The notes below the pieces were generated by a model, which made no database searches, was not told the DNA's origin, and saw only the letters and a program-made list of their open reading frames with translations. 36,514 nucleotides of DNA from an uncultured Candidatus Saccharibacteria bacterium (GTDB taxonomy: Bacteria; Patescibacteriota; Minisyncoccia; Phycocordibacterales; UBA9973), in assembly GCA_964637995.1 (NCBI GenBank), contig CAZWXV010000005.1, forward strand, positions 1-36,514. Reading direction: 5' to 3'. Positions 110 to 30,412 of this stretch are shown one piece after another. The position numbers were made by a program, and so were the translations under genes. Each line of letters opens with the position of its first letter. Positions within the stretch are counted from its first letter, which is position 1.

Positions 110-181
110 GGCCCTATCGTCTAACGGTCAGGACATCGGCTTTTCAAGCCGGTAATCCGGGTTCGATTCCCGGTAGGGTCA
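110..181 (+). tRNA. tRNA-Glu (anticodon TTC), CCA not encoded
   Basis: Acceptor GGCCCTA/TAGGGTC, anticodon arm TCGGC-TT TTC AA-GCCGG, T-loop GGTTCGATTCC. Confidence 0.97.
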
Positions 182-12766: not shown

Positions 12767-13122
12767 GAGAAGCGAGCTTAAAACTTTACAGGGGAATGCA
12801 AAACGTCAATATTATGAACAATAATGTTGATATGCCGCGGGCTGTTCTCCGGGCCATGCTTTCCACGCTCGGGCTGCTCTGCCTGACCTATGCGCTTCTT
12901 TTGGGGTTCATGGTCTGGAACATTGTAGAAAGGAAAAATCTGGAAAAAGAGGCTCAGGCCTTGTCTGCCCTAGTTGGTGACCTGGAACTCGAATATTTGT
13001 CGGTATCCGGCTCGATTGATATGGAACTTTCACGCTCTATGGGCTTTGAGGAAGCGCGCGCCAGTTTCGCGCCGCGCGAGAAAGCTCTCGGAAGCCTCGA
13101 GCTTTCTCGCAATGAAATCTAG
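12763..13122 (+). CDS. single-TM coiled-coil protein, positional FtsL-like
   Basis: TM followed by heptad segment; lies between rsmH and ftsI; ATGA overlap. Confidence 0.65.
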   Translation: MREASLKLYRGMQNVNIMNNNVDMPRAVLRAMLSTLGLLCLTYALLLGFMVWNIVERKNLEKEAQALSALVGDLELEYLSVSGSIDMELSRSMGFEEARASFAPREKALGSLELSRNEI

Positions 13123-14815
13123 TTTTTTGCTTCGCTCGAGGGTGGTCGCTTTTTTACTGATATTGTTTTCCGCGGCAGTGGTGACCCGGCTTTTTTGGGT
13201 GCAGGTAGTCCATGGCGATTATTATTCCGGAGAGGCGGACCGCCAGTATGTTACCCCCTCCCAGAACGTTTATGAGCGCGGCACGGTCTACTGGCAGCGC
13301 AAGGACGGTGAACTCATTTCCGCCGCCGCGCAGATATCCGGCTTCAAGCTTACGATCAATCCCATGAAAATTACCGATGCGGCCGAAGTTTATAAAAAAG
13401 TTAACGCGATAATTCCGATGTCCCGCGAAGATTTCTTGTCGAAGGCCTCAAAAGAGAATGACCCTTATGAAGAAGTTGCCCAGCGTTTAACCCGCGAAAC
13501 CGTGGATGCTGTCTCCGCGCTAAAAATCCCCGGGTTGAGCGTTTTCAAAGAAAAGTGGCGTTCTTATCCCGGAGGCGACCTGGCGGCGCACACCCTGGGT
13601 TTCGTGGGTTACAAGGGCGACGAACTCGGCGGGCGCTACGGCTTGGAGCGGCAGTACGACCGGGAGTTGTCCCGGGGCGCAAATGAACCGTACGTGAACT
13701 TTTTCGCGGAAGTATTTTCCAATATTCAAAAAAGTTTCAGGGAAGAAGATAAAGAAGGGGATATAGTGACTACCATCGAGCCCAAAGTGCAGAGCTTACT
13801 CCAAGGCAAACTGGAGGAGGTGAAAGAAAAATATTCGGTGGATCTCGTTGGCGGCATCATAATGGATCCGCGCGACGGTTCCATTTACGCGCTGGCAGCC
13901 CTGCCCGCTTTTGACCCTAATAAATTTTCCGTTGCCGCAAACAATCAGATCTTTTCCAATCCGCTGGTGGAAAACGTGTTCGAGTTCGGCTCCGTGGTCA
14001 AGCCGCTGGTCATGGCCGCGGCGCTGGACACCGGCGCGGTAACGGCCAAGACCACCTATACCGACAGCGGCTCGGTAAAAGTCGAGAAGAAAGAAATATT
14101 CAATTTTGACAAGAAGGGGCGGGGTCCTGGCACGACCATGCAGGATGTCTTAAACCAGTCGCTCAACACCGGTATGGTCTTCGTCGAACAAAAACTGGGC
14201 AAACAAAAAATGCGGGAATATCTCCTGGGATACGGCATCAAAGAGAAGACCGGCATCGACCTGCCCAACGAAACTTCGGGCCTGGTTTCCGGAATTTTGA
14301 ATAGTCCGCGCGAGATTGAATATGCCAACGCTGCCTTCGGGCAGGGCATAGCGCTTACTCCGGTGGGGCTCGCCCGCGCGCTCGCCTCTCTCGGGAACGG
14401 CGGCAATCTAGTAACGCCCCACGTTGTGGAAGAAATAAAATATACGGATGGGGGATTCAAAAAAATGATTTACCCCACGGTGCCCACGAAGATAACCCCC
14501 CAAACCTCGGATGAAATCACCCGCATGCTGGTCACGGTAATGGATAAAGGTATTGGCAAGCCCCTGGAACATTTTAGTGTCGCCGCAAAAACAGGCACCG
14601 CTCAAGTTGCGGACAGCGAGAACGGCGGTTATTATACAGACAGGCATACGCATTCTTTTTTCGGTTATTTTCCGGCATACGACCCCGAGTTCATTGTCTT
14701 TTTATATGCCATCAATCCCAAGGGTGTTCAGTATGCCGCGACCACTTGGTCCGACCCGTTCGTGGATATCACCAAGTTTCTCTTGAATTATTATAGTATT
14801 CCGCCGGACCGTTAG
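13112..14815 (+). CDS. ftsI: class B penicillin-binding protein (FtsI/PBP2 family)
   Basis: N-terminal TM; SVVK (SxxK), SLN (SxN) and KTGTAQ motifs; start taken at ATG 13112. Confidence 0.92.
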   Translation: MKSSFLLRSRVVAFLLILFSAAVVTRLFWVQVVHGDYYSGEADRQYVTPSQNVYERGTVYWQRKDGELISAAAQISGFKLTINPMKITDAAEVYKKVNAIIPMSREDFLSKASKENDPYEEVAQRLTRETVDAVSALKIPGLSVFKEKWRSYPGGDLAAHTLGFVGYKGDELGGRYGLERQYDRELSRGANEPYVNFFAEVFSNIQKSFREEDKEGDIVTTIEPKVQSLLQGKLEEVKEKYSVDLVGGIIMDPRDGSIYALAALPAFDPNKFSVAANNQIFSNPLVENVFEFGSVVKPLVMAAALDTGAVTAKTTYTDSGSVKVEKKEIFNFDKKGRGPGTTMQDVLNQSLNTGMVFVEQKLGKQKMREYLLGYGIKEKTGIDLPNETSGLVSGILNSPREIEYANAAFGQGIALTPVGLARALASLGNGGNLVTPHVVEEIKYTDGGFKKMIYPTVPTKITPQTSDEITRMLVTVMDKGIGKPLEHFSVAAKTGTAQVADSENGGYYTDRHTHSFFGYFPAYDPEFIVFLYAINPKGVQYAATTWSDPFVDITKFLLNYYSIPPDR

Positions 14816-14816
14816 T

Positions 14817-14863
14817 GCCCCCAAGTCGGACTTGTGGGTTTCCCACAAGTCCGACTTGGGGGC
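14817..14863. repeat. 47-bp nested palindromic element, intergenic copy
   Basis: Perfect 22-bp inverted repeat GCCCCCAAGTCGGACTTGTGGG-TTT-CCCACAAGTCCGACTTGGGGGC. Confidence 0.9.
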
Positions 14864-14873
14864 GACAAATCAA

Positions 14874-16178
14874 ATGAAAAATATTTTAAAACAAATTCTC
14901 GCTTATATTTTAAAAACCGAGTCCCGGCTTGTGCTTTGGAAATACCAGCCGCGAGTTATTGTCATTACCGGCTCGGTCGGGAAGACCTCGACCAAAGACG
15001 CGGTCTATGCCGTGCTATCCGCTCTTTCCTACGTGCGCAAAAGCGAAAAAAGTTTTAATTCCGAGATAGGGCTGCCGCTCTCCGTGCTCGGGATTCCGAA
15101 CGGCTGGAGCAACCCTCTCGTTTGGACCTCAAATATTTTGCGGGGGCTCTGGCTTTTCATCTGGCCCCATAAGTATCCGAAGTGGCTCGTGCTGGAAGCG
15201 GGCGTGGGCAAGCCGGGGGACATGAGAAAAACCGCCGCCTGGCTTAGGGCGGATGCGGTCATCGTTACCGCTATCAGCGAAACTCCCGTGCATATAGAAT
15301 TTTTCGATTCCCGTGAGCATCTGATAGAAGAGAAATCAGCGCTCATCCGGACGCTCAAGCCCGGCGGTCTCTTGGTACTCAACCACGACGACGAAGCGGT
15401 TCGGAAGATGAAGGAAAAAACCAAGTGCCGGAGCATCGCCTTCGGCTTCTCCGAAGGTGCGGACATCCGCGGTTCCGGCGACAATATTTCCTACAATGAA
15501 AAGAATGAGCCGGAGGGCGTCATATTCCGGGTAGATGCGGAAGGCAAAAGTCTGCCGGTGGTAATAGACGGTGTTTTTGGCAGGAATCATATTTATGCTT
15601 CGCTTGCGGCGCTAGCGCTCGCCTCCGGATTCAAGTGGAATCTCTTGTCCGCCGCAGATTCTCTCCGGGATTACGATGTGCCGCCCGGACGCATGCGCCT
15701 GGTTAAGGGAATAAAAAAGTCCCTTATAATAGATGATACATACAATTCTTCGCCCGTGGCCTGCGAGGGAGCCCTTAAGACACTCGGGGAAATAAAATGC
15801 AGGGTCGAGGGCTGCCGGAAGATCGCTGTCCTGGGAGACATGCTCGAGCTCGGCAAGCACACTATCGAGGCGCATAAAAATATCGGGCGGCTCACAAAAG
15901 AAAACGCAGAAGCGGTGATAGTTGTGGGGCAGAGGGCAAAAAACATAGCGGAAGGCGCGCGGGAAGCGGGCATGCGCGCGGATTCCATTTTCGAGTGCGT
16001 TGATTCGCGCGGGGCGGGAGAATTCCTCAAAACTTTTGTGCAAAAAAACGACATCGTGCTCATCAAAGGCTCGCAGGGCATGCGCATGGAGCGCGCGGTG
16101 GAACAGATAATGCTGGAACAGGACAGCAAAGAAAAACTTCTGGTCCGGCAGGATCCCGAATGGCGCGCCAAGGAATAA
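14874..16178 (+). CDS. murF: UDP-MurNAc-tripeptide--D-Ala-D-Ala ligase MurF
   Basis: ITGSVGKTSTK, NSEIGLP, IDDTYNSSP, LGDMLELG, LIKGSQG; start taken at ATG 14874. Confidence 0.95.
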   Translation: MKNILKQILAYILKTESRLVLWKYQPRVIVITGSVGKTSTKDAVYAVLSALSYVRKSEKSFNSEIGLPLSVLGIPNGWSNPLVWTSNILRGLWLFIWPHKYPKWLVLEAGVGKPGDMRKTAAWLRADAVIVTAISETPVHIEFFDSREHLIEEKSALIRTLKPGGLLVLNHDDEAVRKMKEKTKCRSIAFGFSEGADIRGSGDNISYNEKNEPEGVIFRVDAEGKSLPVVIDGVFGRNHIYASLAALALASGFKWNLLSAADSLRDYDVPPGRMRLVKGIKKSLIIDDTYNSSPVACEGALKTLGEIKCRVEGCRKIAVLGDMLELGKHTIEAHKNIGRLTKENAEAVIVVGQRAKNIAEGAREAGMRADSIFECVDSRGAGEFLKTFVQKNDIVLIKGSQGMRMERAVEQIMLEQDSKEKLLVRQDPEWRAKE

Positions 16179-17278: not shown

Positions 17279-17466
17279 GTGTGACCTCACGGGGAATCGC
17301 GAGTACGCTTTCGGTCACAAGTCTTTTTCTGCTGAAAAAGCTCGCGACCCCGTCTCGCGCCGCCGCGCTCCGGCTTTCGATTCTCGCCGTATGGCGATCA
17401 CGAGCGACGCAAAAAGCACTAGAGAAAATCCGGTGCTTTTTGGTCGTGTGACCTCACGGGGAATCG
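17279..17466 (-). mobile_element. tRNA 3'-end-duplicating hairpin-rich mini-element (putative)
   Basis: 21-bp direct repeat GTGTGACCTCACGGGGAATCG at 17279-17299 and 17446-17466; inverted TTCGATTC at 17376-83; internal hairpins. Confidence 0.6.
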
Positions 17467-17520
17467 AACCCCGATTTGGAGCTTGAGAAGCTCCCGTCCT
17501 AGCCGTTAGACGATGAGGCC
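17449..17520 (-). tRNA. tRNA-Glu (anticodon CTC), CCA not encoded
   Basis: Minus strand GGCCTCA...TGAGGTC-A, anticodon arm GGAGC-TT CTC AA-GCTCC, T-loop GGTTCGATTCC. Confidence 0.97.
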
Positions 17521-17579
17521 AATAGCAAAAATATAACATTTTTTTACGAAAATGCTAATTTTTTTGCTATACTTTGCAT

Positions 17580-28927: not shown

Positions 28928-30412
28928 ATGGCGGAAAGTAAATATTACGTAACAATCGGGCTGGAAATTCACGCTGAGTTAAAAACACAGACAAAAATGT
29001 TCTGCGCGTGCAAAAACGATCCCGACGAAAACCGGCCCAACACGAATGTTTGTCCGGTGTGCACGGCGCACCCCGGCGCTTTGCCTGTGCCCAATAAAAA
29101 AGCTATCGAAAACGTCATAAAAGTAGGATTGGCGATAGGCGGCAGCATTGCAGATTTTACAGAATTTGACCGCAAGAATTATTTTTATCCCGACATCCCC
29201 AAGGGCTACCAGATATCGCAATATAAATTTCCGATTGTCACCGGCGGGCATTTGGCGGGCATGGATGTTACGCGGGTTCACTTAGAGGAAGACACGGGAA
29301 CCAATAAACATATTGATTCCCCACAAGTCAGACTTGTGGGGAATACCCACAAGTCTGACTTGTGGGAAGAAGGATACTCGCTGATAGATTTCAATCGCGC
29401 GGGCGTGCCTTTGATGGAGCTCGTGACCGAGCCGCATACTTTCGAGAGTGCGGAAGAGGCGGCGAAAAAGGCATCGCACTTTGCCAAAGAATTCCAGCTA
29501 ATACTCTGGTATCTCGATGTATCCGAAGCGAACATGGAGAAGGGGGAGATGCGCGTGGAAGTGAACATTTCCATAACCCGTGACCCGAAAGTTTTCGGCA
29601 CGAAAGTGGAAGTGAAAAATCTGAACTCTTTCCGGAGCGTAGAGCGCGCCATCAAATACGAAGCGGAAAGGATGACGAAGCTTCTGGACGCTGGCAAAGG
29701 CGAAGAAATAGTGCAGGAGACCCGCGGCTGGGATGACAGCAAGCAAGCGACGTTTTCCCAGAGAAAAAAAGAATCCAGCCACGACTACCGGTATTTCCCC
29801 GATCCTGACCTGCCGAAAATGATGCTTCACGAAGCGTTTGATTTGGAGCAGATGAAAAAAGAATTACCGGAGTTGCCTGAAGAAAAGCGAGAGAGGTATA
29901 AAAATGAGTTTGGAATAAAAGACGAAGATATAGAAAGTTATATTAACGATTTGACTTTGGGTAAGTGGTTCGAAGAGGTGGTTCCATTATTAAAAAATAA
30001 GGATTGGATTCAAATTGCTTCAAATTATATTACCTCCGATTATCTTGGAATAAAAAAAAGCAACTCATTAGCCAAATTACCTTCCCCGAAGAATTTTGCA
30101 GAGCTTATTAATTTGGTTGCAGAAAACAGTATCTCTTCCCGAGTAGCTAAAAATATACTGGCGATTATAGTGATTCACGACGAATCTCCTGAAAAAATCG
30201 CAGCCGAGAAAAATCTTTTACAAGCTTACGACGAAGATTCATCTGTAGAATTTATTAAGAAAATTATAGAAGCAAATCCCAAAATTGTTGCTGATTACAA
30301 AGGAGGTAAAGCGAATGCCCTTATGTCTCTTGTCGGTATAATAATGAAAGAAACAGATGGAACTGCGAACCCGCAGGTCGCAAAAAAGTTATTAGAAGAA
30401 TTGCTTAAGTAA
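28928..30412 (+). CDS. gatB: Asp/Glu-tRNA amidotransferase subunit B, with in-frame palindromic insertion
   Basis: IGLEIHAEL, FDRKNYFYPDIPKGYQISQ, NRAGVPLMELVTEP, YRYFPDPDLP. Confidence 0.98.
   Translation: MAESKYYVTIGLEIHAELKTQTKMFCACKNDPDENRPNTNVCPVCTAHPGALPVPNKKAIENVIKVGLAIGGSIADFTEFDRKNYFYPDIPKGYQISQYKFPIVTGGHLAGMDVTRVHLEEDTGTNKHIDSPQVRLVGNTHKSDLWEEGYSLIDFNRAGVPLMELVTEPHTFESAEEAAKKASHFAKEFQLILWYLDVSEANMEKGEMRVEVNISITRDPKVFGTKVEVKNLNSFRSVERAIKYEAERMTKLLDAGKGEEIVQETRGWDDSKQATFSQRKKESSHDYRYFPDPDLPKMMLHEAFDLEQMKKELPELPEEKRERYKNEFGIKDEDIESYINDLTLGKWFEEVVPLLKNKDWIQIASNYITSDYLGIKKSNSLAKLPSPKNFAELINLVAENSISSRVAKNILAIIVIHDESPEKIAAEKNLLQAYDEDSSVEFIKKIIEANPKIVADYKGGKANALMSLVGIIMKETDGTANPQVAKKLLEELLK
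29320..29366. repeat. 47-bp nested palindromic element, intragenic copy in gatB
   Basis: Perfect 21-bp inverted repeat CCCACAAGTCAGACTTGTGGG-GAATA-CCCACAAGTCTGACTTGTGGG. Confidence 0.9.

Follow-up and report, generated by a model that had tools for sequence, protein, structure and literature searches.

How does a palindromic DNA repeat come to lie, in frame, inside an essential gene? We addressed this question for gatB (28928–30412, plus strand) in a window of 36,514 nt, which is one whole contig of the groundwater genome under study, G000 (703,564 bases, 28 contigs, 95% complete). The gene carries a 51-nt insert that belongs to a repeat family dispersed through the genome, keeps the reading frame, is an insertion relative to the sister sequence, recurs at the same site in unrelated lineages and has the potential to form a hairpin. 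We consider it probable that this insert is a copy of a mobile hairpin resembling repetitive extragenic palindromes (REPs) and REPINs, which are pairs of inverted REP units forming one long hairpin, and that it is translated and tolerated, like other copies in permissive protein loops; the mobility, translation and neutrality of the element are what we infer from the observations set out below.

The insert in gatB and its probable gain

The open reading frame (ORF) of gatB, 494 aa long, runs straight through the palindromic repeat. It matches the Pfam domains GatB_N (residues 8–303, E 1e-99, 333.7 bits) and GatB_Yqey (residues 347–493, 105.7 bits) and, among solved GatB chains, 3al0_B at E 1e-117, and its product is subunit B of the Asp/Glu-tRNA amidotransferase. 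The insert (29318–29368, unstranded) consists of two 21-nt palindromes 5 nt apart, with arms at 29320–29340 and 29346–29366 that are complementary at 21 of 21 positions (pair I20) and a spacer at 29341–29345. It is read as residues 131–147, the 17-residue peptide SPQVRLVGNTHKSDLWE, between HLEEDTGTNKH and YSLIDFNRAG, and adds 17 codons to the baseline loop KHDRGDFSL. In RNA folding it gives a 21-bp stem of −43.7 kcal/mol (z −9.5), a stability reached by 0 of 200 shuffles.

The half-site pattern CCACAAGTCNGACTTGTGG, allowing up to 3 mismatches, occurs four times in the window (14819, 14843, 29321 and 29347), against an expectation of 0.00 from 100 dinucleotide-preserving shuffles. The first two matches fall in an intercistronic doublet at 14817–14863 (unstranded), whose 22-nt arms, separated by a TTT spacer, are 100% complementary (I15) and fold at −49.2 kcal/mol (z −10.8); it begins 2 nt past the stop codon of a penicillin-binding transpeptidase gene (12974–14815) and ends 10 nt ahead of the ATG of a Mur ligase gene (14874–16178), both neighbors being identified by Pfam. 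The initial annotation had placed a palindrome of this same family inside gatB between two conserved motifs, and the shared half-site pattern, the perfect arms and the in-frame peptide bear this out.

A repeat of this kind could have been falsely joined into gatB by metagenome assembly, and repeats do end contigs in this genome: contig C11 ends in a half-site and also has a doublet at bases 36–78. We give this account practically no credence, because Logan contigs from public runs, four of which were mapped on gatB, bridge the insert independently of the assembly. In run X3, another sample of the same study, a 275-nt contig covers 29176–29450 with 0 differences and 0 gaps, and in run X6, from soil in another study, a 216-nt contig covers 29201–29416 with 13 differences and 0 gaps, so that the insert is not an assembly error and the insertion, which the initial annotation had made to hinge on read support, is spanned by contigs of two other samples. 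The X6 contig comes from a diverged relative (13 differences in 216 nt) whose insert is equally long. Run X1, which may be the source sample, provides a 4396-nt contig that matches 29177–30412 with 0 differences. Also at odds with a false join, the gatB frame stays open, and a related doublet occupies the equivalent place in the GatB genes of six other genomes or contigs.

To place the insert among orthologues, we assembled GatB sequences from 40 related genomes (29 best matches kept), 80 metagenome contigs and 4 further genomes, giving a comparison set of 104 sequences of at least 400 aa, that is, G000 and 103 relatives. The loop from KH to [FY]SL has at most 5 aa in 69 of them, 6–9 aa in 7 and 10 aa or more in 28, and KHDRGD[FY]SL is the usual form in the genus. 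The closest GatB found, L331, which is 85% identical over 463 columns and sister to G000 in the GatB tree (FastTree support 1.00, SH-aLRT 100), has the short loop KHDRGDFSL. The 17 codons were therefore either gained on the G000 branch or exactly lost in L331, and exact loss is unlikely. The orthologue alignment thus agrees with the earlier view of the segment as an insertion.

An AlphaFold2 model of the protein (29-row alignment, pLDDT 84) assigns residues 129–151 a pLDDT below 50 and draws them as a loop joining strands 125–128 and 151–154, which fits a tolerated excursion from the fold; the phmmer alignment to the solved chains 3al0_B and 3h0l_B is unreliable over this loop. The insert may well be selfish and may lie in a surface loop, as the initial annotation proposed.

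A dispersed repeat between genes and in other core proteins

The repeat unit is a 19–21-nt palindrome, CCCACAAGTCNGACTTGTGGG, with a 9–10-bp stem, and it usually occurs as two tandem units with an A/T-rich spacer of 1–7 nt, for a total of 45–51 nt. Each unit being almost identical to its reverse complement, the doublet also folds as a single hairpin of 21–23 bp. At up to 2 mismatches, G000 contains 28 half-sites at 15 loci, comprising 13 doublets and 2 single units, one of which is cut off by a contig end; the reversed control pattern has 0 matches in this genome. A half-site profile search of G000 recovered only these 28 (at least 16.7 bits), with the next match at 6.8 bits, and detected no decayed copies. 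Arms are 100% complementary in most doublets, and the differences that do exist from copy to copy (the fifth base being A or T and the third base C or A) are compensated between the arms, so that the long hairpin stays perfect at 18–23 bp.

Six proteins of G000 contain the repeat in frame, as doublets in GatB, topoisomerase I (TopA; peptide PQVRLVGTTSLTCGE), MnmA (SHKSDMWEPTCLTCG), an R3H-domain protein of the KhpB/Jag type (HMSDLWDSHKSDMW) and TsaD (PQVRLVGNSHKSDLGE), and as a single unit in RNase H (SHKSDLGE). All six host ORFs are continuous, with Pfam domains that extend across the insert or lie beside it. Depending on the frame, the unit yields three types of peptide, HKSDLW, PQVRLVG and PTSLTCG; in the PQV frame, an arm whose central base is T contains a TGA, and none of the six hosts reads such an arm in this frame. 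When the five hosts other than GatB were aligned with 29 relatives each, the G000 peptides were found in G000 alone, at loops where the relatives hold other, variable inserts. Searching all six frames for the three peptide types returned the same loci and one stray QVRLVG on contig C2 that belongs to no element. The proposal that a palindrome adds peptides to core proteins of this lineage, made from gatB, accordingly extends to five more hosts in the same genome.

The arm-to-arm spacing is 22, 23, 24, 26 and 26 nt in the five genic doublets and, among the intergenic ones, 24 nt in seven of eight and 25 nt in the eighth, a difference that, on these small numbers, is what selection for an intact frame would give.

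Further peptides of repeat origin were seen in the relatives. In MnmA, the frames of relatives span 390–456 aa as against 354 aa in G000, and many members of the genus have matches split near query residue 130 within a single open frame, which suggests another insertion hotspot, absent from G000. Other repeat-encoded peptides recur in different host genes and genomes (MnmA of L090, L102, L089 and L110; TsaD of L155, L161, L148 and L153), examples being LL.EGVGGGNSKNHH..LKGTPP.QGGE, TDIFLLKNSSCSRQS.SQ and GSLS...PLGSSACETP..NCFSF; these recurrent peptides point to several further in-frame element families in the genus.

The eight intergenic doublets all lie between co-directional genes, 1–11 nt past a stop codon and 12–20 nt before the next start. 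Four are in the ribosomal-protein operon, between the genes for L4 and L23, L14 and L24, S14 and S8, and L6 and L18; the others lie between the penicillin-binding transpeptidase and Mur ligase genes, upstream of the S18 gene, between the FtsW/RodA and FolD genes, and between the S41 peptidase and L9 genes. This tight placement raises the possibility that the repeats are functional signals kept and spread by selection, such as RNase III sites, mRNA-stabilizing stem-loops or binding sites of a dimeric protein, in which case the genic copies would be by-products or translation regulators. A stem of 21–23 bp has the length of an RNase III substrate, and the long, perfect stems could be processed by this enzyme, since the genome encodes an RNase III homologue (131 bits). 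The lack of detectable decayed copies would also suit selected signals, as would the compensated pair changes between genomes (CCACAGGTC..GACCTGTGG in G059, CCACAAGTT..AACTTGTGG in G010). Occupancy of individual junctions among six compared genomes can be read both ways: G000, G059 and G105 have a copy at the L14–L24 junction, and two of the six have one at S14–S8, a recurrence in keeping with function, but L14–L24 is empty in G085, G019 and G005, so that occupancy varies among members of the genus. Moreover, selection for a signal hardly explains one sequence inside six unrelated ORFs in various frames and orientations, nor its absence from the nearest GatB relative, and it is difficult to imagine what benefit an essential ORF would draw from an RNase III site or a hairpin of −44 kcal/mol. 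No Rfam family matched the repeat: around it, the best hits were eukaryotic miRNA precursors at no more than 28 bits, compared with gathering thresholds of 35–120, and at the gathering threshold the whole window gave only 3 tRNAs. On balance, we judge it decidedly unlikely that function explains the family, and favor the mobile hairpin.

The element is not confined to G000. At up to 2 mismatches the pattern was found in 32 of 101 genomes of the genus, G000 and G076 among them, as opposed to 1 of 101 for the reversed control, and its variants across the genus are genome-specific and differ by compensated pair changes. When one genome per species was scanned for exact matches, at least 127 stretches were returned, mostly in records of Candidatus Nomurabacteria or Paceibacterota. 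Among the matches listed, 48 of 127 lie in a frame open for 120 nt on both sides; these listed matches include inserts at the same sites as in G000 in GatB (L239), TopA (L204, L237 and L290) and the R3H protein (L255 and L308), further open-frame hosts (a Mur ligase, Fmt, MiaA and a helicase), and two genes resembling Y1 transposases, L253 and L327, in which the unit is in frame just after the HUH motif (NHFHLYITPSHKSDLW... and NHFHIYLMINSHMSDMW...).

Matches in Nitrospirota and other phyla were rejected as elements, as they correspond to the CPxCG zinc-binding motif that leucyl-tRNA synthetase and DNA ligase possess naturally: the unit can spell TCPTCG, which is such a motif, and this accounts for exact DNA matches in unrelated phyla (L223, L249, L264, L295 and L297). 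In-frame copies that are read as TCPTCG give their hosts an added CxxC motif.

Repeated occupation of one GatB loop

A doublet with a GTCNGAC core is present at the identical GatB codon position in seven carriers, namely G000, L332, L335, L397, L411 and L412, as well as G019 (L019), where the doublet is decayed. Every carrier has its own compensated variant, for example CCAGGTC..GACCTGG or CACATGTC..GACATGTG, and copies match the variant of their own genome: CCACAAGTC in G000, and CCATATGTC in G019, where it is found both in gatB and elsewhere in the genome. On a GatB tree built without the loop, the seven carriers require 7 state changes, and a tree constrained to group them has a log-likelihood (lnL) lower by 349.8 and is rejected by the approximately unbiased (AU) test at p-AU 2.6e-45, in a comparison where the carrier group was defined after inspection of the first tree.

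The same loop is also filled by unrelated palindromes, in L341/L359, L333, L356, L413/L020/L346, L347, L024, L404 and L348. Of the 28 expanded loops, 14 are more stable when folded than any window of equal length in the gene that carries them, another 6 are matched in stability by no more than 5 such windows, and 8, mostly of the TSTSLSAG type, are unremarkable. The initial annotation held that its reading would fail if orthologues had equally long loops free of palindromic DNA; loops of this sort do occur, but only as a minority (8 of the 28 do not fold notably, against the 14 that fold best). Other insert sites in GatB of the relatives follow residues 28, 215, 300, 353 and 377, but none comes close to the KH loop, where 34 of the 104 sequences have an insert.

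An identical codon position in all seven carriers could also indicate one ancient insertion into gatB in a common ancestor, followed by many losses, with the hairpin kept by compensation or gene conversion and the present carriers as remnants. Partial forms do exist: L359 has only the left arm of the L341 palindrome, L345 has only a GTCCGAC core beside the full doublet of L412, and the arms of G019 are imperfect, forms that suggest decay by deletion. In addition, L016, L332 and L411, which come from different parts of the tree, have the flank KHID...GY in common. Nevertheless, we find a single ancient origin very improbable, given that monophyly of the carriers is rejected and that each copy matches the variant of its own genome. 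Non-carriers, L331 included, have DRGD[FY], which is also found outside the genus-level clade, so that each deletion would have to restore the loop exactly. Nor was any raised identity seen in 60-nt windows around the insert when G000 was compared with L332, L411, L412 and L341; this speaks against one ancient insertion and also gives no support to the idea that an entire insert-bearing gatB allele was transferred recently.

Repeated insertion of a mobile hairpin remains our preferred explanation. The element would have moved or been copied repeatedly within the lineage, and its copies would survive in the few bases between the cistrons of operons and in permissive protein loops; a genic copy would persist only where it adds a whole number of codons and is read in a stop-free frame. 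The gatB copy would have arrived once the lineage had separated from its nearest sampled relative, and would be transcribed and translated as 17 residues in the catalytic cradle domain, where they would form a tolerated loop joining two strands.

The concentration of palindromes at one position also allows a more specific variant, in which several REPIN-like families have been repeatedly inserted at the same codon-level sites by a hairpin-homing system. The enzyme would recognize hairpins in single-stranded form, would most likely be one of the many hairpin-flanked Y1/HUH transposase-like proteins, and would take an older, decaying hairpin as the landing pad of a new one; the stems would be kept because the cell uses them, for instance in RNase III processing or pausing. 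The KH/YSL loop of GatB would have been hit by at least 7 families, and there would be comparable loops in TopA, MnmA, TsaD and RNase H. We regard homing of this kind as rather unlikely.

Relation to known repeats and candidate mobilizers

The initial annotation compared the insert to Rickettsia palindromic elements (RPEs), a comparison that is apt as an analogy, while by size the element is closer to REPs and REPINs. According to excerpts of a review (PMC10969869), RPEs (Ogata et al. 2000) are palindromes of about 150 bp that lie in frame in unrelated housekeeping genes and also between genes, and in R. conorii nearly half of them, from three of ten families, are in genomic ORFs. Like RPEs, the element is a dispersed palindrome in frame in unrelated conserved genes, read as an extra peptide, with additional intergenic copies. 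Insertion in frame and in a manner compatible with the fold is seen in both, judging here from the six open ORFs with their intact domains and from the predicted loop in GatB. RPEs, however, are about 150 bp long, belong to Alphaproteobacteria and are unrelated in sequence, whereas the element is a 45–51-nt doublet in a genome of the Patescibacteria type, with 6 of its 15 loci genic.

Excerpts of the study of intragenic REPs by Di Nocera et al. 2013 (PMC3733652) describe units of 20–40 bp with GTAG or CGTC tags, often in inverted pairs and mostly just downstream of ORFs, where the adjoining genes are co-directional or convergent, and some intragenic REP dimers that encode 20–30 aa. Because these intragenic dimers, reported there from other phyla, are of like size, we place the element nearer to REPs and REPINs than to RPEs of 100–150 bp. 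It is similarly a short stem-loop palindrome, often paired, and its intergenic copies lie just downstream of ORFs between co-directional genes. Its 28 units at 15 loci in 0.70 Mb include 8 loci just past stop codons and 6 inside ORFs. It differs from REPs, as far as the excerpts of PMC3733652 describe them, in having 28 units where REPs often exceed 100, in a much higher genic fraction, and in its phylum, which the survey does not include as far as these excerpts go. The 13 doublets, aligned together with 3 neighboring bases to left and right, show neither a GTAG nor a CGTC tag at the unit ends.

The likeness to REPINs lies in the hairpin of inverted doublets, in the excess of doublets over single units (13 to 2) and in the genome-specific variants, although the element is smaller. 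REPINs were reportedly found by Bertels and Rainey in 2011 to be mobilized by REP-associated tyrosine transposases (RAYTs). No RAYT flanked by the element was found in G000, where the sole Y1 gene scores below the REP_Tyr_transpos cut-off and is flanked by another hairpin. Since it shows neither a GTAG or CGTC tag nor an element-flanked RAYT, and is far shorter than RPEs, we set the element beside the REP/REPIN kind and not as a member of it. MITEs (miniature transposable elements with inverted repeats), which excerpts of PMC10969869 present as small, non-autonomous, dispersed, bounded by inverted repeats and sometimes fused in frame to ORFs, are similar in these respects, but the element, as a whole an inverted repeat, has no visible target-site duplication, its terminal repeats enclose no internal sequence, and no full-length insertion sequence related to it was found. 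In full-text literature searches we found no description of palindromic in-frame repeats, REPs or IS200 hairpins in the candidate phyla radiation (CPR), Patescibacteria or Parcubacteria; a 2026 preprint mentions a RAYT only next to an archaeal rbcL.

Which enzyme might mobilize the element? The Y1 (HUH) transposase-like proteins of the genus are a tentative candidate, with the greater part of our weight on some other enzyme or on recombination or gene conversion between copies. Y1-like genes occur in 76 of the 101 genus genomes (G076 included; about 0.5–0.9 Mb), at up to 13 per genome. G000 has one Y1_Tnp-like ORF, of 237 aa and with a HUH motif, on contig C28 at about 1859–2593 (L046:1240–1953, minus strand), which scores 33 bits in Pfam (cut-off 23) and 41.9 bits with the NCBIfam model REP_Tyr_transpos (cut-off 80). 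Four of 13 examined Y1 loci (L046, L423, L425 and L426) are flanked on both sides by their own identical hairpin, and the outer stem at L423 spells ACATGTC...GACATGT, as in the element. The hairpin-bracketed ORFs of L423, L425 and L426 have a REPtron- or IS200-like layout. On C28, both the Y1 ORF and its upstream neighbor carry TQGSPV, the in-frame reading of the hairpin there, at their C-termini.

Several observations weigh against the mobile, translated hairpin that we favor. The Y1 ORF of G000 is flanked by a different, 17-nt hairpin, CACAGGGTTCCCCTGTG, present in 3 copies (to about 3250 on C28) and nowhere else in the genome. Y1 genes were found in 27 of the 32 genus genomes that contain the element and in 49 of the 69 that do not, with no clear association, and G054 has 8 half-sites and no Y1 match; as Y1 genes are not distributed in step with the element, we put this link forward as a hypothesis. 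In the 13 aligned doublets we saw no target-site duplication, terminal tag or conserved flank, in an alignment where exact insertion borders can be set for gatB only. The combination of perfect stems and no decayed copies fits a recent burst and, equally well, selection or homogenization. Recurrence at the L14–L24 and S14–S8 junctions and at one gatB codon position, together with the flank common to L016, L332 and L411, leaves room for site-specific targeting, allelic recombination or function. Finally, translation of the inserts is suggested by their intact frames.

Other inverted repeats were noted in the window and the genome. In the window, a 96-nt inverted repeat (87–182 and 17448–17543, 79% complementary, I1) corresponds to two tRNA genes, at 110–181 (plus strand) and 17449–17520 (minus strand). 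Elsewhere in G000, long perfect palindromes lie on contig C1 (16800–16866, a 32-bp AT-rich stem with a GC-rich tip) and on contigs C4 (19033–19068 and 20014–20046) and C19 (7975–8006), the latter three being two GC-rich 16-bp stems and one 16-bp palindrome of the TTACGTAA type.

The genome of this organism is only about 0.7 Mb, yet its essential enzymes (a tRNA amidotransferase, topoisomerase I and three tRNA/RNA enzymes) have been lengthened by repeat DNA that appears to be translated. Inserts of this kind throw alignments out of register, make sequences look more diverged than they are and break assemblies. That many palindrome families have recurrently occupied a single GatB loop could make it possible to separate target choice from selective filtering, and the hairpin-flanked Y1 genes provide a concrete candidate enzyme. 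These repeats would thus represent an unexpected source of novelty in protein loops, and of genome plasticity, in CPR bacteria.

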